Positions 4,392 through 56,466 of a stretch of DNA of 64,000 nt are shown in pieces. This stretch comes from a virus. Every line of letters begins with the position of its first letter. Position 1 is the first letter of the stretch. Position numbers and translations under genes: made by a program. The stretch lies in IMG/VR virus record IMGVR_UViG_3300045988_128835, one strand, 5' to 3'. The notes under the pieces were generated by a model, which made no database searches, was not told the origin of the DNA, and saw only the letters and a program-made list of their open reading frames with translations.

Positions 4392-4670
4392 ATGGGTAGA
4401 TCGACAGAGTACTACAGGACTCATCCCGAAGCCAGGAAGAAAAAGGCTAAAAAGGACAAGGAGATAAATGCCAGACCGGAACAGAAAGCCAAACGCCGGG
4501 AGCTTGGTCGTAAAAACTACGAAACGGACAAGAAGAAAGGCAAAAGCTGGAGGAAAGGCAAAGATTGTTCTCATACCAAAAACGGTCTTAGGTATAAATC
4601 AGTAAAAGCTAATAGGGGATCCAAATCGGATACAAAAGGTGACAAAAATGCACGAGGAGATAGCAAATAG
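4392..4670 (+). CDS. highly basic Lys/Arg-rich small protein, possibly nucleic-acid-binding
   Basis: 92 aa, roughly 40 percent K/R. Confidence 0.4.
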   Translation: MGRSTEYYRTHPEARKKKAKKDKEINARPEQKAKRRELGRKNYETDKKKGKSWRKGKDCSHTKNGLRYKSVKANRGSKSDTKGDKNARGDSK

Positions 4671-5772
4671 GATAGATATAAGAAGGATATTCAAAACCTC
4701 CAAACAGGTTATGGAAGAGGCGTATGAGAATATCTTAAAATACAGGCGGGGAGAGCTTATCCCCGCTAAAACCGGATACGATTATATTGATGAGGCTTTG
4801 CTTGGAGGTATTTTCCCTCAGCATGCTATTGCCATAGGGGCTCGGCCATCTGTGGGTAAATCGTATGTGGCCCAAAAGATATTGGAAAATGTGATGAATC
4901 CGATGATCAACCCACAAGCAGAAGATTATTTTCTTGTCAATTGCGAGTTCGAAATGAATCCTCAAGATCTTCTTCTTCGCAGAATGAGTCAGGATATGAA
5001 AAAACGGGCTCCTGAAATATTAAGAAGGCAAGATTCTAATACAGTAGAAGAGATGAGGATGTTTGAAATCCTTCAAGGTGAAATCAGAAATAATATAATA
5101 TACATCGACGCTCCGTGTACGGTAAAAGAGTTTGAGGCGGCTGTATATCATATAGCTACTAAGCATAAAGACAAACGTCTTATAATATTTAAAGTCGATC
5201 ATATTGCTTTGATAAAAAGAATGGGATTGGATCCTAAGTCGGCTATAGATGATTTGGTGGCGGTTATGAACGAAGCTAAATTAGTATATAAAAACATATT
5301 TTTCCTCATCATATCCCAATTCAACAGAGAGATAGAAGGAAGGATAAAAAGCCCACAAGAGCAGCCTCCGCGTCTTTCTGATTTTTACCAATCTGATACG
5401 CTGGGTCAGTTATGTACGTTAATGATAGGTTTGCACAATCCTCGTAGGTACGGGCTGGATAAGTATATGATATTTGGGAAAGATTGGTATCAGACTCTTG
5501 ACCGGTTTAAAACTGAAAACAAAACATCATTCAGGACAGCCGGACTGGTGTTTCATCATATACTGAAGGTAAGGCAAGTTAGTATGGAAGAGCTTACTAA
5601 TACAATCCACCCAGAGATCCTGCCGGGGCATGGATGGATGTACGGGGAGGGAGGGACGAAGTTCGTGAACCCCAACCAGCCGCCGACGCCGCCCAAGCTC
5701 TATACTGTGGAAGACGTTACGGACAATCAGGAACAAGAACAAGAGACAAAAGAAGAACAGTCAGTATATTAA
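4639..5772 (+). CDS. DnaB-family replicative helicase (RecA-fold core only, no N-terminal domain)
   Basis: Walker A GARPSVGKS matches the DnaB signature GxRPxMGKT; Walker B-like IIFKVDH; helicase and primase are adjacent. Confidence 0.6.
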   Translation: MTKMHEEIANRIDIRRIFKTSKQVMEEAYENILKYRRGELIPAKTGYDYIDEALLGGIFPQHAIAIGARPSVGKSYVAQKILENVMNPMINPQAEDYFLVNCEFEMNPQDLLLRRMSQDMKKRAPEILRRQDSNTVEEMRMFEILQGEIRNNIIYIDAPCTVKEFEAAVYHIATKHKDKRLIIFKVDHIALIKRMGLDPKSAIDDLVAVMNEAKLVYKNIFFLIISQFNREIEGRIKSPQEQPPRLSDFYQSDTLGQLCTLMIGLHNPRRYGLDKYMIFGKDWYQTLDRFKTENKTSFRTAGLVFHHILKVRQVSMEELTNTIHPEILPGHGWMYGEGGTKFVNPNQPPTPPKLYTVEDVTDNQEQEQETKEEQSVY

Positions 5773-5786
5773 AAAAAAAGAAACGT

Positions 5787-6389
5787 ATGAGACTTACTGT
5801 AGAAGAAAACGAATACCTGATAAGTAAGTTCCTTTTGGTTCTTACTGAGTTTGCGGGGGATGAGAGAGAGATGTTTTTAATCAACTCCATACATGACAAG
5901 GCGGTGGCGGATATGAATTATCGTCTTCCGTCTTTAATAAGCAGAGAACGTAAAAGACGAGTCATTGAGCTCCTTAAAGAAGGGACCAGAATAATCAAGG
6001 ACTTTTCCGGCTATGCAGGTGATATGGGTATGATTAACGAATACGATCGTCTAAAGAAAGAAATAGGAACCGTCCAAGATCAGCTTGGTGACGTAGAAGG
6101 TCAACTTCGGGCAGCAGGAGAAGTTATTAAAAAAGAACTTGATATGATTGCTGACCGAATCAAAGAAGATCTTCTTGATCGAGAACTGGCTAAAAGTAAT
6201 GCCGAGGCTGAAAGAAAAGCCAAAGTAGATCCGAGATACGAAGTAGCTTTAGGTGATTACAAGGAGATGCTGGAAGTGATTTTTACAACCAGAAACAAGT
6301 ATTCTACGGTAGATTCTGTACATGACGATCTTCGACAGTCGGTATCTACCGGTAGAAATTCGATTATTAAAGAAGGGTACAACAGTTAA
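5787..6389 (+). CDS. hypothetical coiled-coil protein
   Basis: ORF from the track trimmed to the first ATG after the upstream stop (MRLTVEENEY...). Confidence 0.45.
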   Translation: MRLTVEENEYLISKFLLVLTEFAGDEREMFLINSIHDKAVADMNYRLPSLISRERKRRVIELLKEGTRIIKDFSGYAGDMGMINEYDRLKKEIGTVQDQLGDVEGQLRAAGEVIKKELDMIADRIKEDLLDRELAKSNAEAERKAKVDPRYEVALGDYKEMLEVIFTTRNKYSTVDSVHDDLRQSVSTGRNSIIKEGYNS

Positions 6390-6604: not shown

Positions 6605-7318
6605 ATGTACATCAATTTCAGACAACTTGCAGCATCAGACATGACTCCTAATGATCTTGCTAATCTTCTTGCCATAAGACAGAAGGATACGGTTATGATC
6701 GAAGCCATGCCGGAAGAAGATGCTGGGAGGTATATAGAGCTTGGCCTGGTTGAGAAATTAAAATCAGGCGTGATGAGATTGACCAACAAAGGAACGTCTT
6801 TTGTGAATTATATAGAGACACCGGAAATGACAGACGAGGTTCTGGAAACGTTGAAGATTATGATAGGAATGTACGAATCGTATTCAAAAGACATAGGTGT
6901 CAGCAGAAAAGAAGCGGAATCCAGATTGTGTTGGTTTATGGGTAACACCTCATTCAAGAAAGAGGTCATACTTCAGGTAACGGAATATTATATAGCAGAG
7001 TCAGGAGATTATACAATGAGCTTATGTAACTTCATATGGAAACCGCCTTCTCAGGCTTTTTCAGTTCATATGAACCTTAAAAATTCAAAGCTCTTTGACT
7101 TAATAGCTGAAAAATTTAAGATCGCTACCGAGCCTTATTTGGAGCCTAAGAAGAATAAGGAAATGGATTGGTTGTTTGCCGTATCTAAATTGCCTACGCC
7201 GCCGGCTAAAGGCAATCCGGATTATTTGTTTACCGGAAGTGCGGAAACAGACAAAGAACGATTGAAAAACATAAAAACATATTTATTTAACAAAATTAGA
7301 AAGCAATGGAAAAAGTAA
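6605..7318 (+). CDS. hypothetical protein
   Basis: 237-aa ORF immediately upstream of, and overlapping, the acyl carrier protein gene. Confidence 0.5.
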   Translation: MYINFRQLAASDMTPNDLANLLAIRQKDTVMIEAMPEEDAGRYIELGLVEKLKSGVMRLTNKGTSFVNYIETPEMTDEVLETLKIMIGMYESYSKDIGVSRKEAESRLCWFMGNTSFKKEVILQVTEYYIAESGDYTMSLCNFIWKPPSQAFSVHMNLKNSKLFDLIAEKFKIATEPYLEPKKNKEMDWLFAVSKLPTPPAKGNPDYLFTGSAETDKERLKNIKTYLFNKIRKQWKK

Positions 7319-7557
7319 GAATTAGAAAGATAATAGAGGATATAATTATTACTCAGTTTCTTAATTCGGAAATGGATATAGTTCATGAAGAAGATGTGTC
7401 GTTTAAAGAACTTGGATTAGATTCTATTGATCGAATTGAGCTTGATGCGATGGTGGAACAAAAATTCAATATCGTTATTATTGATTATGATACAGAATCC
7501 ATCAAAGATATGACTGATCTTGTTTACAAAATAATAACAGAAGGATATGGGAAATGA
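7306..7557 (+). CDS. acyl carrier protein (phosphopantetheine-attachment motif LGLDSIDRIEL)
   Basis: 83-aa acidic protein with the canonical DS(L/I)D serine motif at the expected position. Confidence 0.7.
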   Translation: MEKVRIRKIIEDIIITQFLNSEMDIVHEEDVSFKELGLDSIDRIELDAMVEQKFNIVIIDYDTESIKDMTDLVYKIITEGYGK

Positions 7558-8041
7558 TATAATTTTATGCATGGCTTTAATAGCGTCATTTGCTTTTGTT
7601 ATACAGTTTTTATTGTCGATATTAGGATCTGATCTGGATACGGATATTGACATTGATAACGCTTCTGATTTAAGCATGTCTTTGTCGGACATCATATCAT
7701 TCAAAGGCATAACACATTTTATTCTTGGATATAGCTGGACCACATACTTTTCGGGTTCCCATTTAATAGGGGTCGTAATAGGGTCGTTTTTCTTTATCGT
7801 TTTGTTTTACGTATATAAGTTACTTCTTAAGTTAAAGCAAGAAATGGTGTACGAATGTCCGGAAGATTTAAATGGCAGAGAAGTGGAGATAGTATTTAGA
7901 TCAGGGAAGAATCATTATATGGTAAATATTTCGAAAAATGGAAGACAGGAACAGATGAGAGTGAGGTGCTTGTCTGGAAAAAATTACAAAAACGGTGACA
8001 AGGTGAATATAAAATACGAAGAAGGAGAATTAAGTATCTAA
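7547..8041 (+). CDS. NfeD-like membrane protein (short form, YqiJ/YuaF-like: three TM helices plus C-terminal OB-fold beta domain)
   Basis: Three hydrophobic helices then a beta-rich tail (VEIVFRSGKNHYMVNI...GDKVNIKYEEGEL); lies immediately upstream of the SPFH gene. Confidence 0.6.
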   Translation: MGNDIILCMALIASFAFVIQFLLSILGSDLDTDIDIDNASDLSMSLSDIISFKGITHFILGYSWTTYFSGSHLIGVVIGSFFFIVLFYVYKLLLKLKQEMVYECPEDLNGREVEIVFRSGKNHYMVNISKNGRQEQMRVRCLSGKNYKNGDKVNIKYEEGELSI

Positions 8042-8072
8042 TTTTTTTATCAACAATTAAATTTTAAAAGTT

Positions 8073-9773
8073 ATGACAACAATCATGTACGTGTCAGCTA
8101 TTTTAGCTGTAGTGATTATTTTGACAATCATCGGAGTCTTATCAAGGTATCGTAGATGTAAGCCTAATCAAGTCTTGGTCGTTTATGGTAAGACAGGTGG
8201 GGAAAAGAAATCGGCGAAATTATATCATGGTGGAGCGGCATTTGTCTTGCCTATTATTCAAAGCTATGATGTTTTGTCAATGGAGCCTATGCAAATAGAT
8301 TGCAAGCTTACCGGTGCTTTGTCATCTCAGAATATTAGAGTAGATGTACCTACGACTATTACAGTAGCTATCAGTACAAATCCAGAAATCATGCAAAATG
8401 CGGCAGAAAGACTTTTGGGGATGGATACCGAATCTACTGAAAATCTTATTACGGACATCGTTTACGGTCAGATGCGTTTGATTATTGCTGAAATGACAAT
8501 CGAAAAACTTAATTCTGACAGGGATGAGTTTTTGGATAAGGCAAGAAAGAACATTGATAACGAACTTAACAAGTTAGGTCTTTACCTCCTGAACATCAAC
8601 ATCAGTGACATCAGAGACGAAGCCGGTTATATTATGAACCTTGGTAAGGAAGCTGAAAGTAGGGCTCTGAACGAGGCACAGGCTAATATTGAAGAACAGG
8701 AGAAGCTGGGTGCTATTAAGATTGCTGTACAGCAGAAGGAGAAAGAAACGGCTGTGGCTAATACCAAAAAAGAACAAGAGATTCAAATTGCTTGTACTGA
8801 AAAAGAAAAGGAAACGATAGTAGCTGAAACGAAGAAAGAAAAAGAAATAGCCTTGGCTTTAACCGATAAAGAGAAACAGATCGGCGTAGCTCAAGCAGAT
8901 AGAGACAGGGCTGCGGTTATCGCAAAAACTTTAACCGACAAGGAATCGGCGATTGTAAGATCTAAGGCAGAACTTGAAGTAAATAAAGCCGAGGCTGAAA
9001 GGATGGAAGAAGTCGGAAAAAATAAGGCTGAAGCTGACAAGGAAGCAGCTATAGCAATACAAGACTCTGAAGCTCAGATTAAGAAGGCTGAGGCTGAGAA
9101 AAATGCGTCTATAGGATACAACAATGCCCAGAAGGAGGTTGCTGTATCGGTATCAGAATTACAGATCATCAAAGCTCAATCAGAGAAGAAGGCCGGAGAA
9201 GAAAAAGTTAAATCGGAAGCGGCTGTAAAAACGGCAAAAGAACTTGCTGATAAAGAAGTGGAAGAAGCTAAGGCTAAGAAAGTTCAGGCTGCGCTTAAGG
9301 CTGAAAAGATTGTGCCGGCTGAAACCCAGAAGGAAGAGGCTATCTTGCAAGCTGATGCTGAGGCAGAGAAGATCAAACGCCGGGCTGAGGCAGAGGCAGC
9401 AGCACATTTGGCAAAAGCTGAGGCGGAGGCAAAAGCTATTCAGATGAAGCTGGAGGCAGAAGCCGAAGGTAAGAAAAAATCGTTGATGGCAGAAGCCGAC
9501 GGATTTAAGGCTATGGTGGAAGCAGCAGAATCCAATCCTCAGATCGCCATCCAGTACAAGATGGTTAATCAGTGGAAAGAAATTGCCGGAGAACAGGTTA
9601 AGGCATTTGAGCACATTAACCTCGGAAATATCACGGTATTTGACGGCGGTCAGAACAGTACCGGTAATTTCCTTAACAATGTTGTCAAGACCGTCGCTCC
9701 GGCATTGGGAGTCATTGATCAGCTTCCGATTGCAGATACTTTAAAGAAGTTAAAGGGAGATGACAAAAAATAA
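8073..9773 (+). CDS. flotillin-like SPFH/band-7 protein (YqiK/FloT-like: N-terminal TM, SPFH domain, long EA/KE coiled coil, C-terminal flotillin domain)
   Basis: N-terminal TM helix, SPFH-like core (VLVVYGKTGG...QIDCKLTG...IRVDVPTTITV), about 250 aa of Ala/Glu/Lys-rich coiled coil, C-terminal EADGFKAMVEA...NQWKEIAG. Confidence 0.8.
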   Translation: MTTIMYVSAILAVVIILTIIGVLSRYRRCKPNQVLVVYGKTGGEKKSAKLYHGGAAFVLPIIQSYDVLSMEPMQIDCKLTGALSSQNIRVDVPTTITVAISTNPEIMQNAAERLLGMDTESTENLITDIVYGQMRLIIAEMTIEKLNSDRDEFLDKARKNIDNELNKLGLYLLNINISDIRDEAGYIMNLGKEAESRALNEAQANIEEQEKLGAIKIAVQQKEKETAVANTKKEQEIQIACTEKEKETIVAETKKEKEIALALTDKEKQIGVAQADRDRAAVIAKTLTDKESAIVRSKAELEVNKAEAERMEEVGKNKAEADKEAAIAIQDSEAQIKKAEAEKNASIGYNNAQKEVAVSVSELQIIKAQSEKKAGEEKVKSEAAVKTAKELADKEVEEAKAKKVQAALKAEKIVPAETQKEEAILQADAEAEKIKRRAEAEAAAHLAKAEAEAKAIQMKLEAEAEGKKKSLMAEADGFKAMVEAAESNPQIAIQYKMVNQWKEIAGEQVKAFEHINLGNITVFDGGQNSTGNFLNNVVKTVAPALGVIDQLPIADTLKKLKGDDKK

Positions 9774-9936
9774 ATACAATGGCCCAAGGTTACACTTGGG
9801 CCTAATTGAAGAAATAAAAGCAGCATTCATAGATTTCCTGCCGGCGGAAACAGTGCTTTTAAGTGCTTTACTAATTACGATATTTTTAACATGGATTTTG
9901 GACAAGATTTAGAACCAGAAGAACTGACCAAGCATT

Positions 9937-18521: not shown

Positions 18522-19010
18522 ATGGAAAATAATTTAAAACTCGTATGCCCAAAATGTGGCACCCCTCACCAGCCTCATTCTCCGCACACGATGGATGCAG
18601 ATGGATTTGAAAGGTGTGAGATAAGAACTGTCATGGAAGACAGGGGGTGGTGCTACGAATGCTCTTTTTGGCAAAATATGTACGACAAGCACAAAGACGA
18701 TCCAGGATGGGTTAGGATAGACGGTGAAAGCTGGGTGCTTAAGCCTATGGTGGAAAACGTACCGAGCGGATGGAACAGCCTTGGATGTGGTGGAAGAAAG
18801 ATGTATATCAATATCGAAGGGAAAGGCATTGTTGTATCAAATAACTGCTGGTGCCAAGGTGATGTTTCGGACGCATTCAAGGATCTTATGCCTGATAATG
18901 CTACTTGGGCTACGAAGGAGGAATTTGACAAAGCTCCTGTAGTAGGACATATCATAGAAGGTATTGGTTTAGTTTTCACAGATAGGGGAGGTCATGAAGT
19001 TAATGCTTAG
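18522..19010 (+). CDS. Cys-rich hypothetical protein
   Basis: 162 aa with CPKCG...C...CYEC...C clusters; last gene of the plus-strand block. Confidence 0.45.
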   Translation: MENNLKLVCPKCGTPHQPHSPHTMDADGFERCEIRTVMEDRGWCYECSFWQNMYDKHKDDPGWVRIDGESWVLKPMVENVPSGWNSLGCGGRKMYINIEGKGIVVSNNCWCQGDVSDAFKDLMPDNATWATKEEFDKAPVVGHIIEGIGLVFTDRGGHEVNA

Positions 19011-19053
19011 AAACTTATTTCATGTTCTGCTTATACAAGAAAAGATGGTAACT

Positions 19054-19100
19054 ACAACAATCCCCAACCATACAATAGGCGTACGGTTGGGGATTGTTGT
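19054..19100. terminator. perfect 16-bp inverted repeat (ACAACAATCCCCAACC / GGTTGGGGATTGTTGT, 15-nt loop) at the convergence of the plus and minus gene blocks
   Basis: Seen directly; located between the stop codons of convergent genes (19010 and 19100). Confidence 0.5.
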
Positions 19101-19837
19101 CATATCGTAAAATTAAGTGTTTTTTCTAATATCAGATATTCAGTATGAACTTTACTTCCGCCATCATTTATCAAGTCCAAATTAATATAAGCTGTATATG
19201 ATACATGATGATCACCAGGAGCAATACGTTTCATATCTGATAAGAACATAGAATTTAAACCTTGGCCAGACCATGATTCTGGATATGGCAAAGGTTTAAA
19301 GTCGGCGTCTGTACATCTTACAATCCAAGTAAGATTAGGATCTGCCCTAACTATTCTATCATGAGGTCCATCAATTACAAGATCTGGCATCTCATATTGG
19401 TAACTATCATAATTAAGGACAATAGGATCACCAAAGTTTACACCGTATATAGCAGCAGGTGGAGTAAAGCTTGTTATTAAAAAGGTTCTATTAATCCTAT
19501 TGGTTGTTCTTAGCGTAAACTCATCAGGTGCTATCACACTTACTCTAAATCCATAATAAGGAGAGATTGTTAAAGCAATAGCAAGAACCACCGAATCCTG
19601 TTCAAGCAATTCCTCTGTCGTATCAACCTGACTATCGATCTCTTGCCTATCTTCCATTGGAACACCGCCTTGGACACTTATGGAATCCAGCCGTTCTTTT
19701 TTAGACAGAAAGATAAATTGCCCGCCCTGTGGAATGGTGCCTACTTTCTTTCCTTCTACGATTACCCCCCCCCCTATACAATCGCTAACTATCTTATACT
19801 CATATAGTTTAGCATTATTTTCAAATCTTCTTCTCAT
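19100..19837 (-). CDS. tail-fibre/receptor-binding-like virion protein, MRRRF N-terminus, contains a G10 homopolymer
   Basis: 245 aa; last gene of the minus block; shares its MRRRF start with two paralogous-looking ORFs. Confidence 0.5.
   Translation of the reverse strand: MRRRFENNAKLYEYKIVSDCIGGGVIVEGKKVGTIPQGGQFIFLSKKERLDSISVQGGVPMEDRQEIDSQVDTTEELLEQDSVVLAIALTISPYYGFRVSVIAPDEFTLRTTNRINRTFLITSFTPPAAIYGVNFGDPIVLNYDSYQYEMPDLVIDGPHDRIVRADPNLTWIVRCTDADFKPLPYPESWSGQGLNSMFLSDMKRIAPGDHHVSYTAYINLDLINDGGSKVHTEYLILEKTLNFTI
19765..19774. repeat. C10/G10 homopolymeric tract inside the coding sequence (encodes GGG in ...DCIGGGVIVEG...)
   Basis: Counted directly: 10 consecutive C on the plus strand. Confidence 0.9.
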
Positions 19838-19841
19838 AATT

Positions 19842-20459
19842 TCATAAAATTAATTCGGTAAAGGGGCGGACAAAACGTGGATTACTCCTTGTACTTGTAT
19901 CCAAATGATCTCCTTGGATGTTTATATCATAATACCACGAATAGGTAGATTGTGTAGATTGAGTGGATGTCCACATTTTATTACTCATTATCGTACCTCC
20001 TACCATTAAAAGGCATTCGTTTATTTCATTCGCATACAATGATATCAAAAAAAACTCTCCGGCGCCACCTACATATCCATTTTGACCATTTTTAAATAAA
20101 TAGCTATTAGCTTTATTAAAAGCGTAATTTTCATTACTGGTATCATATTCAAGATACGCATTCTGATTTTCACGCCCCCAATAATCCTTTTTAACGGTCT
20201 CCATATAAGAACTATTTTGTGCAAATATATTGTCTACTCTTCCATTCTTACCCCAACTAAATGTGCCAATATATTCGGTGGCTATAACAAAACACACTTT
20301 ATCTACAAGAGCTATTCCATTGCATAGATCATTGGAATATCCTTTATTAGACCAATTTTCTTTTGTATATAATCCTCCATCTACATGTTGGATGTATATG
20401 CCTTTATTGATTATAAGCGAGGGATTTACCCCCATCCCTATTTGAAATCTTCTTCTCAT
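19842..20459 (-). CDS. tail-fibre-like protein with MRRRF N-terminus
   Basis: 205 aa, rich in W/Y/N/G (beta-sandwich-like composition). Confidence 0.5.
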   Translation of the reverse strand: MRRRFQIGMGVNPSLIINKGIYIQHVDGGLYTKENWSNKGYSNDLCNGIALVDKVCFVIATEYIGTFSWGKNGRVDNIFAQNSSYMETVKKDYWGRENQNAYLEYDTSNENYAFNKANSYLFKNGQNGYVGGAGEFFLISLYANEINECLLMVGGTIMSNKMWTSTQSTQSTYSWYYDINIQGDHLDTSTRSNPRFVRPFTELIL

Positions 20460-20501
20460 CTTTTTTTTTGCAAGATACTATTTTTTTTCATAACAAAAGA
20501 A

Positions 20502-20542
20502 ACCGGTTCCCTATCATCTCTGACTGAGAACCGGTAAGAAAA
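20502..20542 (-). terminator. hairpin (AACCGGTTC...GAACCGGTT) followed by a U-rich tract on the minus strand, downstream of the 2140-aa gene
   Basis: 9-bp stem seen; U-rich flank on the minus strand. Confidence 0.35.
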
Positions 20543-20672
20543 CAATTTCAGAAAAAATTAAACCTACATAATCTTTCAAGTAAGAACAAAAAAACGTACA
20601 ATCTACTCTTTGACGATGCTAATATAACATATTGGAATCATACAAAAACAATGCAAGTCCGATATTCTTCGT

Positions 20673-23600
20673 CTATTTGTAACTAACGTCATCGTCTCCT
20701 TCCGAATCAGGAGTAGCGCCGATGAAGAACATCATTGACTTGTTGTTTGTCTGCTGCCACCAATTATAGGCGCGCGCTACGTCTTCCGGCGTCTTGATAT
20801 TATACCATTGTTTGATAAACGTCTGTTTGGCGAGTTGCCTAAATAACTTAGACTCTCCCTTGTATGTACCGGATGTTACTTTATCAAGTGAATAATTCCT
20901 AAGATCGGTAAGATCCTTCAGTTTTCGCCCCATAACAAACGGATCGTTAATGATATCTACCACGTTAAGCTCCATAATAAACGGCATCTGTGAAGCTATT
21001 TCGTTTATGGTTCTGAATCCGACATAGGATCCAAATTGAGTAAGCCAACTTTCTTCGTTTTCATCATCATCACGCCATCCGGCAAGAAGCATGGATACGG
21101 CTTGCATGATAAGGAACGTGCCGGCATAGACACTGAGGCGTTTGAGATTAGTTTTTTCTACCTCATTCATATTGTCTTTATTTTCGTTCCAGGCATCTAT
21201 GATGTTTTTCATACCAGACTCGGAAGCCAGGCTAAATGTTTTGGCTATCATATTCTTTAACGTAATTGACAACCCTTCCTCTTCTTGCATTGTTTGGAAA
21301 TTGAAGCCACGTCTTTTCCACAGACGTTGAGCCGCCAGCACCAACCATCCTCGGTGGGCGGTCATGAACCTGGCTATCCAGTTGCGCGATGCGGCAGTTC
21401 GGTTTTCTTCATTCAAAGATCCGTTACATATCTGCGACAAGCTACGGACTTGATTCCTGGTTATAGCCATCTGGGTTTCAACTTCCTCAACAGTAACACC
21501 CGATCCTGGCTTTACAACCACCTTCCCATCCACGACGTCTACCATACTCCATAAAGTACGATCTTTTAATGCGTTCCATTCTCTTTTTATGGTACTCTGT
21601 TCTTTATTGCGTTCTTTTTCCATCTTGAAATCTTGGAACGTGTAGAACCGGCCTTTGTAATAACGAACATTGTCCATAGTAGCAATCATAACCTGCGGAT
21701 CAAGAGGGTAGTTCAGGATTTCCATAAAAGCATACATAGGCGAACGCATTAAGGTCCTGGCCGCTCTATTGTATCCGGCACCATACATACGATTTCGGAT
21801 ATTGAATATCCCCATTCTCTCACCTATGACATATAATTTGCTTTTCCTATCTATGTCTCCGGTTTCTGCTATACAAGATGGAGCAAGGCGTGAAAATTCA
21901 GCCGATGCGTATTTAAGGGAGTCTTTGCTTATATACTGTCCTACGGCAGATTCCATGATGAGGTTGATATGACCTGTTAAGGCGCCGGTAGCTGCCACAA
22001 ATGGAGACAGTGCCAAGTTCATGACCGACATAAACCTTTCAACAGCCATCATAATTCTTGTAAGGTCTACCGTATATCCTCCGATGTTCACCGTAAGTTT
22101 TTTGGTGTTCATCCTAATGCCATAATAATGATCGTTGAAGAAGTCCCTGAACATCTGATATGCTTGGGTTGCTTCAGCCTTTTTACCACCTTCAAATTGT
22201 TTATTTAGTAACATCTGCTCCAGTCCTTGAGCGAGCTCTATAGACTTCTGCTTTTCGTTGTATAACGATGACTGCATCATAAGCATCGAATAAGAGTAGC
22301 CAAAATCGTGAGATACATCATCTTGGTTCTCCAATTCATATATGTAGTATTTAGGTATAGACCTAAGCCTGTCTTCTGGATCATACACTTCTCCTTGCCT
22401 GGTCTTACCATATAGAGAATCGTCTACTCTGTCCAGGCACAGATCTGATACAAAATTACGAACCGTATTTTTGAAGTTAATACCCAATCCTTCTACACGT
22501 TCTATATCTTGTTTGGATATCTGTGGAATAGCATACAGGTTCGGGCTCTGCTCTTTGTATAGATCAAGGGATTGTCTTTTTATTTCCTTGAGTTTTTGAA
22601 TCATATTCCACTGCTCTACGTTTTTAGTAGCAACCTCATTACCGTCAGCATCATACTTGATACCAAAGTCATTGAAATACGATTCGTCACGATACAGGCT
22701 TTTCTTAGGCATTCGATGACCATACCCATGATCTTTTACATAATCAGGATTACGACCGCTATTTTCGGCTTCAGATTCAGCCACCCATGCCCTTGCAGGG
22801 TCGAAAGACAAGTACGATATGTCCATGCCATAATCTTGGGTGGATGTACCGTTTTGTACGTCCTTAACCATTTGCGCCACATCTATCTCACCTCGACCGA
22901 TTTTGTCGATCATAGCTGCATATCCGGTAGGCGCCATGCGTTTATAGTACGAAAAAACCTGGCTTCTGGCAAATTCATTAACAATAGCATTAGCTTCTTC
23001 TACGCCCTCTTCTCTTGTATTATTTAAAAATAAGCTGGCCATCTTAGCATTAACAGCATTCCTGAAATCTCTACCGTCTAATTCTTTGCTTATACCAAGC
23101 TTTTCTGACAGGTAGTTGGTTTCAGATACGGTAAACAGATATCGGTTATCAGCAGCCTTAAACAGCTTATCCCTTAAAGCCTGAATCCTTTTTGCTTTCT
23201 TCGCCGTAGTATGACGTTGTACGAACTTCCATTCCACTTCCTTGGAGTCAGCAAGAGCATTTAAATAAGACTGATTTACTTCGTTTTCAGCCTTACTGCT
23301 TTTAGTAAGGTACTTATCAATATCTTCAAGACCCACCATCTTAGCATAATCTATCAAAATAGCGTAATCGGCTTCAATAGCTTCAGATGCGGCCCTAAAA
23401 GCATCTCTTTCAGATGAGGTAAATGTCGCTTCGTTAATCTCTCCGATATCAGCCACATCGCGATTGTTTCCGATTATTTCCTTGATAATAGCCTTATTTT
23501 TTTCTATATCTTTCACAATAGAATCCACGTCAGTCGCATCTCTATCACTTGTCGTAGAACTAATGATATCATGCGCCATTTTAAGATACGAAGCCTTGTT

Positions 23601-54610: not shown

Positions 54611-56245
54611 TTAAATCTTAATCTTCTTAATTTCATCAATCATATTCTTATATCCGCAGAACTTGCTGTTAATAACATCGAAGATAGATTCTGACCAGCC
54701 AGCTATGTTCAAGATATTAGATCCTCTGTAAAACATCTCACTTCCATATCCTTGAATAGAAATAGAAACGATTTTGCAATTTGGATTCACTTTCTTGAAC
54801 CCTTTCAAAAGTTCGGCGAATTTGCCATATCCATAACTGGAACTTTTCTCCCATACAACAGATTCACCGTCTCCTATCTGCATATCTGAAATAACGTACA
54901 AGTTATCTACTTTGATCTTATCTTTAACGCACTTATCCAAGAATGCAAAAAGACCGTTTTCAGTGTCACCACCGCATTCTCCTCCGGCAGTAAAAGATTT
55001 TTTGTTATTCCATAAAACACCTTTACTTCTATCATATTCGTAATTGATAAGTTTGTCACCAAACATACCAATAAATACGTCAGGAAGCACAGAAGCAATC
55101 ATACAGCCAAACAAGTTGCCAATGACAGCCGTACTTGTTTTGCTAAAGGCAGACACCTCAGAAGATCCTCCCATATCTCCACGTACAGAGCCAGAGTGGT
55201 CAATCAGGATAGCCGACCGCCCCTCCAATACCGGCAGGTTCTTGCAGGAGATGGTTATGGCTTTCTCCAACGCATCTAAAATCTTATATTTGTTACGCGC
55301 TGTTAATTTAGCACGTTTTTTATCCGACTCAAATACAATATCATTATCGGAACCATCAGTGCCTATATTTTCAACCTCTTTGAAAGCTGAAGCAAAACGG
55401 AAAGGAAGCATCTTCGAATTAAGCACCTTCTCTTCTATTGTAAGCTGCCTACAAACTTCATCTATTTGATCAGGTGCGTATTTGATTATGTTTACAAGAT
55501 TACGAACCATATTAAAAATAGGCATACCTTTTACATTAGAAACCACGTCCCGAATAGCGTCACCTAAAGCTTCTTTCTTTTCCTTATTGTCTTTCTTATC
55601 CTGACCGGCCTTAGACATCTCTTTTTCAAGAATCTTGCTTTCGTATAATCCAGACAAAGATCGACCTTCTATAAGATACTGGAAAGCTGTTTTATTAACC
55701 TGATTGCTTTTGGGGTGAAATAAATTCACAAGATCAATCATCGTAATAACCCTACTGTCCATCTTGTACTTGTCAATCCGATACGGATCAAGACCTTCCA
55801 GGGCCGTCTTAAACCCTTTCTTAATAGCGCTGGATATTCCTCTTAACTTCTTTGGATTTTTGTCGTTAAGAGCCGCATAGCAGCCAAGGATTTCGCTCAT
55901 ATCATCAGGACGCATAACGATCTTATTATAGAACCTTGAAGCCCATTCCTTACCCGATGCTTTGCTGGCAAGGACAGAAGCCATAAGATGCGTTACCGAC
56001 CTAAGCTTTCCTTCTTTCCTGACATACAATGCTGTTTGTGCTGCGAAATATGGATCTACTTGATCCATAAGGTCCTTAATCCTGTTCACCTTGTCTTTTT
56101 CTTTCTCATAATAAGAATCAGACAACATGGTAGTCATTACCGTAGATACCAACTCTTCTTCTGCGTTAGGCTTATACGCCTTCTCTCCCATGTGATTCAC
56201 GATCGTAGGTTTAACACCTTCATCCTTTTTGTTAAACTTTCCCAT
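54611..56245 (-). CDS. rsr: Ro60/Rsr orthologue (TROVE domain plus C-terminal vWA domain with MIDAS motif DHSGS)
   Basis: 544 aa (Rsr proteins are about 530); C-terminal ILIDHSGSV...; N-terminal helical-repeat region; adjacent tRNA-like non-coding RNAs. Confidence 0.7.
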   Translation of the reverse strand: MGKFNKKDEGVKPTIVNHMGEKAYKPNAEEELVSTVMTTMLSDSYYEKEKDKVNRIKDLMDQVDPYFAAQTALYVRKEGKLRSVTHLMASVLASKASGKEWASRFYNKIVMRPDDMSEILGCYAALNDKNPKKLRGISSAIKKGFKTALEGLDPYRIDKYKMDSRVITMIDLVNLFHPKSNQVNKTAFQYLIEGRSLSGLYESKILEKEMSKAGQDKKDNKEKKEALGDAIRDVVSNVKGMPIFNMVRNLVNIIKYAPDQIDEVCRQLTIEEKVLNSKMLPFRFASAFKEVENIGTDGSDNDIVFESDKKRAKLTARNKYKILDALEKAITISCKNLPVLEGRSAILIDHSGSVRGDMGGSSEVSAFSKTSTAVIGNLFGCMIASVLPDVFIGMFGDKLINYEYDRSKGVLWNNKKSFTAGGECGGDTENGLFAFLDKCVKDKIKVDNLYVISDMQIGDGESVVWEKSSSYGYGKFAELLKGFKKVNPNCKIVSISIQGYGSEMFYRGSNILNIAGWSESIFDVINSKFCGYKNMIDEIKKIKI

Positions 56246-56335: not shown

Positions 56336-56466
56336 AATGAGGGAAAACCTGAAGTTAGTGTAAACAATCAAATAATGGATTTGAACCATTGACACATATC
56401 TTAAAAGGATATTGCTCTACCATCTGAGCTAAATTCGAAGTAACTAACCCCATCACCACTCATTAG
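56336..56466 (-). ncRNA. Y-RNA-like RNA 1: a tRNA-like body (D arm GCTC-AGATGGTA-GAGC, anticodon arm with UUU, T arm AATGG-TTCAAAT-CCATT) with no canonical acceptor stem, held in a long stem (GTTAGT/ACTAAC and AATGAG/CTCATT)
   Basis: Folded by hand from the reverse complement; the 5' leader carries the GTGGTGATGG motif. Confidence 0.5.

Follow-up and report, generated by a model that had tools for sequence, protein, structure and literature searches.

Complexes of flotillins with NfeD proteins are widespread in bacteria and several cages of the SPFH superfamily have been solved, and their physiological role is unclear. SPFH–NfeD complexes, the roles proposed for them and the FloA–NfeD work are summarised in PMC13086221, which cites the QmcA–YbbJ SPFH–NfeD cage for the concept of an NfeD partner. 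Here we describe a gene pair of this kind from a virus, found in a stretch of 64,000 nucleotides (the window) of the IMG/VR record IMGVR_UViG_3300045988_128835, in which genes for a short NfeD-like membrane protein and a flotillin follow a gene for an acyl carrier protein (ACP). The pair is a diverged operon derived from the bacterial host and, on balance, it probably acts as a host-like membrane scaffold during infection. Within the viral population the flotillin is optional, not essential.

The phage is 97.2% identical at the nucleotide level over 3.8 kb to crAssE-Sib (GenBank OR575929.1, 151 kb, human gut), which has been put in the proposed genus Epsilonunovirus of the epsilon crAss-like phages (PMC11054128), and it is through this near-identity that it is assigned to the group. 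The CRISPR-based host predictions cited for the group are Bacteroides, Parabacteroides and Porphyromonas (PMC11054128). The species is represented by 165 loci in IMG/VR, and with one exact ACP sequence present on at least 1000 contigs the phage ranks among those most often assembled in human-gut data. In OR575929.1 the three genes are labelled ‘acyl carrier protein’, ‘transmembrane protein’ and ‘flotillin family protein’, so that two of them (ACP and flotillin) already carry a name. The locus is undiscussed in the literature searched: the text of PMC11054128 mentions neither flotillin, acyl carrier, NfeD, SPFH nor membrane, and among the papers that the searches returned none dealt with crAss-like phages and either flotillin or NfeD, and none of relevance with phage-encoded flotillin.

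Five open reading frames (ORFs) run in succession on the + strand, at 6605-7318, 7306-7557, 7547-8041, 8073-9773 and 9760-9912. Their first, second and fourth junctions are overlaps, of 13, 11 and 14 nt, and the third is a spacer of 31 nt. The three central ORFs, of 83, 164 and 566 residues, lie exactly where an earlier reading made from the letters of the window (the sequence-only reading) had placed them. That reading had also described all three as translationally coupled, which is consistent with the overlap between the ACP and NfeD-like genes but does not hold for the NfeD-like and flotillin genes, where a spacer intervenes. A sister phage shows the same order of ACP, NfeD, flotillin and small ORF in the same context, with identities of 39% for the ACP, 61% for the NfeD-like protein, 82% for the flotillin and 42% for the homologue of the 50-residue ORF. 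The flotillin, at 82%, is the best conserved product of the neighbourhood in a comparison where the other genes included reach 76-79%.

The 566-residue product of 8073-9773 (+) is, by its matches, a true flotillin. It is recognised by the Pfam models Band_7 (91.7 bits, cut-off 23.6) and Flot (38.0 bits, cut-off 27), and all five sequences in the PDB that match at E≤0.001 are flotillin-1 or flotillin-2, the best being human flotillin-2 (E 7e-23) and flotillin-1 (E 5e-19). Together with an identity of 65% (81% similarity) over the full length to a Band_7 and Flot protein of Bacteroides thetaiotaomicron, these solved relatives place it closer to the flotillins than to other SPFH branches. Its alignment with Escherichia coli YqiK covers the full length at 24% identity, and against the FloT equivalog model of NCBIfam (NF058507) it scores 144.5 bits for a cut-off of 700. 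A single hydrophobic helix, at residues 4-22 (8082-8138), would provide the membrane anchor and is followed by the SPFH/Band_7 domain (8160-8705), a coiled coil rich in alanine, glutamate and lysine (8706-9482) and the Flot C-terminal domain (9420-9749). Between residues 212 and 470, 63% of the positions are Ala, Glu, Lys or Gln and there is one proline. The flotillin-like protein with a coiled coil of this composition and a C-terminal flotillin domain that the sequence-only reading had described is thus borne out. Among the 50,697 records of a phage collection 11 match the flotillin, crAssE-Sib alone over its full length.

The middle protein (164 residues; 7547-8041, +) had been called an NfeD protein in the same reading, which took the failure of profile hidden Markov model (HMM) searches to recover NfeD as evidence against the call, and formally this is how the Pfam search turned out. 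Neither NfeD nor YqiJ_OB was matched at E≤0.1 by the whole protein, or at E≤10 by its isolated C-terminal domain or by the majority consensus of 83 family members. There was likewise no match to the Pfam YqiJ_N model, no meaningful match in PHROG, NCBIfam or PADLOC, and an hhalign comparison of the family alignment with the single E. coli YqiJ sequence gave a non-significant probability of 1%. Direct phmmer comparison with the PDB gave chance-level matches only, to the anti-sigma factor antagonist SpoIIAA. The fold, the family profile and the gene order all point the other way. In the structural model the C-terminal domain (residues ~105-164; 7859-8038, +), which would be the NfeD-type partner-binding domain, forms a five-stranded OB-like barrel whose best match is to solved NfeD domains. 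An exhaustive profile search collected 408 representatives at E≤0.001, and the family profile, when run against 177,635 PDB sequences, has as its top match YuaF, the NfeD partner of FloT, with an E-value of 0.012 across the whole barrel. PF01957 is itself matched by only 3 of the 83 family members (best E 6e-5), one member, in Xylanibacter rodentium, is named ‘NfeD family protein’ by NCBI, and a viral homologue with 34% identity is entered in UniProt as an ‘NfeD-like C-terminal domain-containing protein’. A Band_7 gene lies directly downstream of the NfeD-like gene wherever the downstream gene can be read, that is in the window, in the loci L083, L085/86, L166-171, L177 and L178 and in 29 Bacteroidales loci. 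It is concluded that the middle protein is a short-form NfeD-like protein, on the basis of fold, family profile and synteny and not of a Pfam HMM; this structural and contextual evidence outweighs the missed Pfam match, and the GenBank label ‘transmembrane protein’ should read NfeD-like.

The features shared by the family are a first helix with the motif QF(I/L)LS, an acidic DxDxDxD loop, a helix with the motif SFKGxxHF, a third, strongly hydrophobic helix and a barrel with the signature LVGR...GD. Helix 1 comprises residues 5-23 (7559-7615, +; Kyte–Doolittle value 2.70) and extends from residue 2 to 25 in the model; helices 2 (residues 51-69) and 3 (residues 72-95) are encoded at 7697-7831 (+) and are defined by the model, hydrophobicity and conservation. 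SFKGxxHF, on helix 2, is the most conserved motif of the family, and the helix that carries it is weakly hydrophobic. Of the three transmembrane helices and OB-like tail that had been proposed, therefore, the tail and three helices are seen in the model, but only helices 1 and 3 are strongly hydrophobic; the N-terminus nonetheless has the multi-helix membrane anchor that characterises NfeD proteins. Between helices 1 and 2 lies the acidic loop DLDTDIDIDNASD... (residues 28-49; 7628-7693, +), with a net charge of -7. It is disordered in the model, with a predicted local distance difference test score (pLDDT) below 50 at residues 33-46. Asp33 and Asp37 are nearly invariant across the 83 family members, bacterial ones included, and the D-x-D-x-D-x-D loop could be a candidate cation-binding site.

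The bacterial members of the family are found as chromosomal genes. In B. thetaiotaomicron and Xylanibacter they stand directly upstream of a gene for a 552-residue Band_7 and Flot protein, and a scan of species-representative genomes, which relies on shared 8-residue words and may miss other Bacteroidales, returned 29 Bacteroidales loci, mostly from Bacteroides and Phocaeicola, in all of which the NfeD-like gene is just upstream of the flotillin gene. The proposal that NfeD and SPFH genes form a conserved bacterial operon is in this way supported. The phage flotillin is 62-66% identical to the Bacteroidaceae flotillins and the NfeD-like protein 31-38% identical to its Bacteroidales homologues (35% for that of B. 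thetaiotaomicron), and by these identities the phage pair is a diverged operon that came from a host. The difference between the two proteins is a property of the families, since the Bacteroides and Xylanibacter pairs show the same pattern (83% for flotillin, 44% for NfeD). As no sampled bacterium exceeds 66% identity, the pair was captured long ago or from a donor outside the sample, and not by a recent transfer. For the ACP and the 50-residue ORF alike, tblastn gave no match within 3 kb of any of the 29 operons from Bacteroidales.

The variation of the locus within the species was followed in 79 IMG/VR loci retrieved through the NfeD-like gene. The flotillin and the 50-residue ORF are wholly absent from 15 of these genomes (19%), namely L090, L095, L097, L103, L106, L108, L114, L127, L128, L134, L144, L149, L157, L162 and L165, all of which retain their neighbours on either side, with the 237-residue ORF, ACP and NfeD-like gene before the gap and the gene for a protein of 119 residues after it. 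At the junction, which is clean, TTT(TT)AAT comes after the stop codon of NfeD and runs directly into ATGGATTTTGGACAAGATTTAG, which corresponds to window positions 9891-9912 and is the last 22 nt of the 50-residue ORF. From these junctions the missing cassette has an approximate extent of 8042-9890, or ~1.85 kb, and its junction falls in a T-rich microhomology (TTTTTAA). The 50-residue ORF (9760-9912, +; hydrophobic helix at residues 29-47, towards the C-terminus) is always lost together with the flotillin, and occupies the same position in the sister phage. In five of the genomes that lack flotillin (L095, at 5560-5804, and also L090, L108, L127 and L134) a HEARO RNA (Rfam RF02033, 94.4 bits, gathering threshold 83) is carried by an insertion of ~370 nt at the start of the gene for the 119-residue protein; this insertion is not present in the window. 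HEARO is an RNA associated with mobile elements.

Selection was estimated within the population, since synonymous sites are saturated between the sister phages and the ratio of non-synonymous to synonymous substitution rates (dN/dS) is unreliable there. At 0.037 for the flotillin and 0.060 for the NfeD-like gene these ratios show both to be under strong purifying selection; the value for the 50-residue ORF is 0.32. The NfeD-like gene remains constrained where the flotillin is missing, with a dN/dS of 0.076 in genomes without flotillin and 0.052 in genomes with it.

Where it is present, the flotillin differs greatly in length, from 408 to 659 residues among cluster representatives. In an alignment of 120 of these the differences are mostly in-frame insertions and deletions of 2-159 residues, which fall largely between residues ~200 and 470 and among which steps of 11 residues are commonest; the rest are a few alternative N-terminal starts, deletions at residues 70-171 and truncations or extensions at the C-terminus. 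No change in the coiled coil breaks the reading frame, and the proteins retain their SPFH and Flot ends. Degenerate repeats coding for AEAEA, with a spacing of 33 nt at 9351-9436, fit the 11-residue step. Collapse of repeats during assembly seems an unlikely source of the variation, as the DNA repeats are just 14-23 nt long with 70-85% identity. In six records (P0020, P0028, P0029, P0046, P0047 and P0056) the N-terminal helices of the NfeD-like protein are fused in frame to the Flot domain. These records have large internal deletions, in which the OB barrel and the SPFH domain are lost along with the greater part of the coiled coil. The presence/absence polymorphism of the flotillin and the length variation of its coiled coil are new, and are the most useful facts to come from the locus.

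Loss of the flotillin from 15 of 79 genomes, and the existence of records with large in-frame fusions of the NfeD-like protein to flotillin, might be expected of a neutral passenger, that is, host DNA captured without a function in infection. Such a lack of function is scarcely credible in the face of dN/dS values of 0.04-0.06, of indels that are all in frame and of a flotillin that is 82% conserved between sister species despite saturated synonymous sites; the identity of at most 66% to sampled bacterial copies also implies a long residence in phages. The same polymorphism bears on a second explanation, in which the flotillin and the 50-residue ORF form a conflict module that acts at the membrane, either to block superinfection by other phages or against a defence of the host. 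Genomes without flotillin are scattered among the clusters built from flanking genes, so that presence and absence of the cassette do not follow the lineages of the species, the coiled coil is highly variable in length, the small membrane peptide that is lost with the flotillin evolves fast, and the pair occupies different genome positions in different phages, as an accessory cassette would. However, none of the families in PADLOC-DB v2 matches any of the three proteins at E≤0.1, the SPFH and Flot domains are under purifying and not diversifying selection, the length variation is explicable by slippage in the repeats spaced at 33 nt, and the literature searched shows no link of flotillin to phage exclusion. 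We regard a role in conflict as rather unlikely.

The interpretation we favour is that the NfeD–flotillin operon acts as a membrane scaffold like that of the host. The locus is flanked by genes for a DnaB-like helicase, a PD-(D/E)XK exonuclease and a superfamily-2 helicase, and on this ground it belongs to the replication module of the phage, an epsilon crAss-like one from the gut, a location in keeping with the sequence-only reading. Its genes may be expressed along with these replication genes, which are on the same strand; a scan for sigma-70 promoters and terminators, a model outside which Bacteroides and phage promoters fall, found no enrichment over shuffled sequences. The flotillin would anchor in the inner membrane through its N-terminal helix and oligomerise through the coiled coil and Flot domain, so that a cage or microdomain of SPFH proteins would form on the cytoplasmic side, like those solved for flotillin-1/2, HflK/C and QmcA–YbbJ. 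The NfeD-like protein would sit in the same membrane and hold its SPFH partner by means of the C-terminal OB barrel. In this way the phage might supplement or replace the flotillin scaffold of the host, the likely benefit being that membrane-protein complexes and the envelope are kept working during infection. Because the NfeD-like gene is constrained in genomes without a phage flotillin, its product probably also works with the host flotillin, which is 62-66% identical to that of the phage.

Several points weigh against a scaffold. Of the sampled genomes 19% do without its flotillin, and this polymorphism, with the variation in length, would also fit a role in conflict. None of the epsilon crAss-like phages has been cultured (PMC11054128). 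The function of bacterial flotillins is itself poorly defined, so that to say the phage proteins work like those of the host is mechanistically weak.

The constraint on the NfeD-like gene can also be turned to a different account, in which the constant part of the locus is the ACP and NfeD-like pair and the NfeD-like protein targets the flotillin cages of the host, re-purposing or disabling the microdomains; where present, the phage flotillin would co-assemble with that of the host. Both the NfeD-like and ACP genes are intact or nearly so in 159 of 159 loci (the ACP being partly covered in 7) while the flotillin is absent from 15, purifying selection on the NfeD-like gene continues in its absence, the identity of 62-66% to the host flotillin could permit mixed oligomers, and the overlap of the ACP and NfeD-like genes is present in both sister phages. 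On the other hand the NfeD-like protein is just 31-38% identical to the NfeD of the host, and its partner specificity may have drifted, and the flotillin, which ~81% of genomes retain and which is under strong selection, would on that account have a positive role in its own right. Interference with host flotillin is thus an unlikely though credible alternative to the scaffold.

The first of the three genes (7306-7557, +) encodes a divergent ACP of 83 residues that resembles those of type II fatty-acid synthesis. It is matched by the Pfam model PP-binding (PF00550, 26.7 bits, cut-off 20.8) and by PHROG 5934, ‘acyl carrier protein’ (E 9e-8), and the best 60 of its 115 matches in the PDB at E≤1 are all ACPs, which is in accord with the identity first given to it. 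In the best of these alignments the motif LGLDSID lies over LGADSLD, and Ser40 (codon tct, 7423-7425, +) coincides with the DSL serine of solved ACPs and is the predicted attachment site for 4'-phosphopantetheine. The serine is retained in the sister phage, where the ACP is merely 39% identical, and in 155 of 162 unique variants of the population, so that the conservation of the motif, on which the sequence-only reading had made the assignment depend, is upheld. Among the matches listed in the homologue search all have at least 96% identity, and the sister phage provides the sole more distant ACP sampled. The protein is acidic (isoelectric point 4.35; 20 Asp and Glu against 10 Lys and Arg). 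The best AcpP equivalog model of NCBIfam gives ~29 bits for cut-offs of 66-106, and the phage protein is ACP-like but neither an equivalog nor an orthologue of AcpP. NCBI titles for the same protein (P0384, P0407, P0421 and others) read ‘Protein of unknown function (DUF1493)’ and those of JGI acyl carrier protein; the matches support the latter name. Phosphopantetheine would probably be added by a transferase of the host.

The 237-residue ORF before it (6605-7318, +), which shares its last 13 nt with the start of the ACP gene, has no assigned function and is a possible co-translated partner of the ACP. It has no match in Pfam or PHROG, is 76% identical in the sister phage and has a population dN/dS of 0.045. 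A suggestion from its size and an ‘SRKEAESR’ stretch that it is an Sfp-type phosphopantetheinyl transferase is unsupported, there being no Pfam match and a pLDDT of 35 for the single-sequence AlphaFold2 (AF2) model.

The sequence-only reading had joined the ACP, NfeD-like protein and flotillin in one pathway of lipid or membrane remodelling, for example for a replication compartment. The three genes are indeed adjacent within the replication module, with the ACP and NfeD-like genes overlapping, the same trio recurs in the sister species, and the serine of the ACP is conserved. As a unit, though, the trio breaks down, for the ACP adjoins the pair only in the present phage and one sister species. 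It is missing from the bacterial operons; on the phage-like contig L177 the NfeD-like and flotillin genes stand behind a gene for a DHH phosphoesterase, downstream of the helicase of that contig and without an ACP, in L178 the gene upstream of the pair is an unrelated one of 95 residues, and in L083 it is divergently transcribed. When a 14-sequence alignment was used as the query for related loci only genomes of the same species were returned, and a search with P0055 found nothing. The annotation of the crAssE-Sib reference (151 kb) names no phosphopantetheinyl transferase, acyltransferase, synthase or enzyme of lipid metabolism. The ACP has a population dN/dS of 0.43, about ten times that of its neighbours (0.04-0.06), and the flotillin is dispensable. 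A single pathway of all three proteins is on this evidence very unlikely. Since L177, L178, L083 and the bacterial operons carry the NfeD–flotillin pair with no ACP adjoining it, the pair is the conserved unit and the adjacency of the ACP is lineage-specific. What links the ACP to the pair is a gene overlap in two sister phage species only, and for this reason we count it as an auxiliary gene next door rather than a proven component of one machine.

A more specific and decidedly speculative scheme, which we consider improbable, takes the ACP and NfeD-like pair as the invariant unit, with the NfeD-like protein docking on flotillin cages of the host or phage and recruiting the ACP to form a lipid or membrane microdomain specified by the phage, in which it would replicate or be assembled. 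If the ACP were recruited in this manner, no earlier viral system would be known to take over flotillin scaffolds of bacteria, and the function of the bacterial flotillin–NfeD complex would become open to genetic study.

Some observations concern the wider genome. The ORF for the DnaB-like helicase (4639-5772) and one for 251 residues (5634-6389) overlap by 139 nt in different frames, so that either the overlap is of unusual length or a start has been called wrongly; GenBank annotates the equivalents of both in crAssE-Sib. The coding strand changes at ~19000-20700, as does the sign of the GC skew, with the maximum of the cumulative skew near 20 kb, replication genes on the + strand lying before the switch and structural genes on the - strand after it. 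A 544-residue protein (54611-56245, -) matches PHROG 850, ‘RNA-binding protein’, and is labelled as Ro60-related in crAssE-Sib; its gene adjoins a tRNA gene (56367-56438, -; Rfam tRNA, 53 bits). The usual partners of bacterial Ro60 orthologues are Y RNAs that resemble tRNAs. The major capsid protein of crAssE-Sib (L172:27336-29033, outside the window) has as its only cultured relatives in the collection of 50,697 phage records the Cellulophaga phages phi17:2 and phi4:1 (34%) and a Leptolyngbya phage (26%); no classical crAss phage matches there. This agrees with the published view that the epsilon phages stand apart from other crAss-like families.

The significance of the locus lies in a diverged host flotillin operon that is kept under strong purifying selection, from which it would appear that a scaffold evidently matters in the infection of Bacteroides. 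The natural variants amount to an allelic series, with or without flotillin, with coiled coils that differ by 2-159 residues and with the NfeD-like gene retained alone, and could be used to test the function of the scaffold and whether the length of the coiled coil sets the size of the cage. Should the genes prove to be ordinary auxiliary genes that mimic those of the host, the public annotation is still corrected, to NfeD-like for the middle gene and from DUF1493 to ACP for the first.

In marine and Vibrio phages, genes for ACPs have been reported and regarded as putative auxiliary metabolic genes. Like the phage ACPs of PHROG 5934, the present one is a small acidic PP-binding protein with a DS(L/I) serine and no full set of fatty-acid synthesis genes alongside; it differs from other phage-encoded ACPs in overlapping an NfeD-like gene, in scoring far below the AcpP cut-offs (29 against 70 bits) and in its fast evolution. 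The ‘flotillin family protein’ of Vibrio phage KIT04 is likewise a flotillin-like SPFH protein in a lytic phage genome, but it is only 29% identical over half the length, and the gene upstream of it, hypothetical and of 82 residues, is not annotated as NfeD. The relationship of the phage pair to yqiJ-yqiK of E. coli and yuaF-floT (NfeD2-FloT) of Bacillus subtilis is very distant. With the solved human flotillin-1/2 (9bq2) and QmcA–YbbJ cages the phage flotillin shares the common plan of an SPFH domain, a long helix and a C-terminal domain; its coiled coil is longer than in the solved cages and variable in length, and the NfeD-like protein is a short-form one that lacks the ClpP-type protease domain. 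The closest counterpart is the operon of Bacteroidaceae such as B. thetaiotaomicron and of Xylanibacter rodentium, which has the same two genes in the same order, with the same domain architecture and a spacer of 20-31 nt. The phage copy is set apart from it by its place in a replication module, with an ACP gene before it and a 50-residue membrane ORF after it, and by a coiled coil with additional segments and of variable length; the bacterial flotillins compared have a constant 552 residues.

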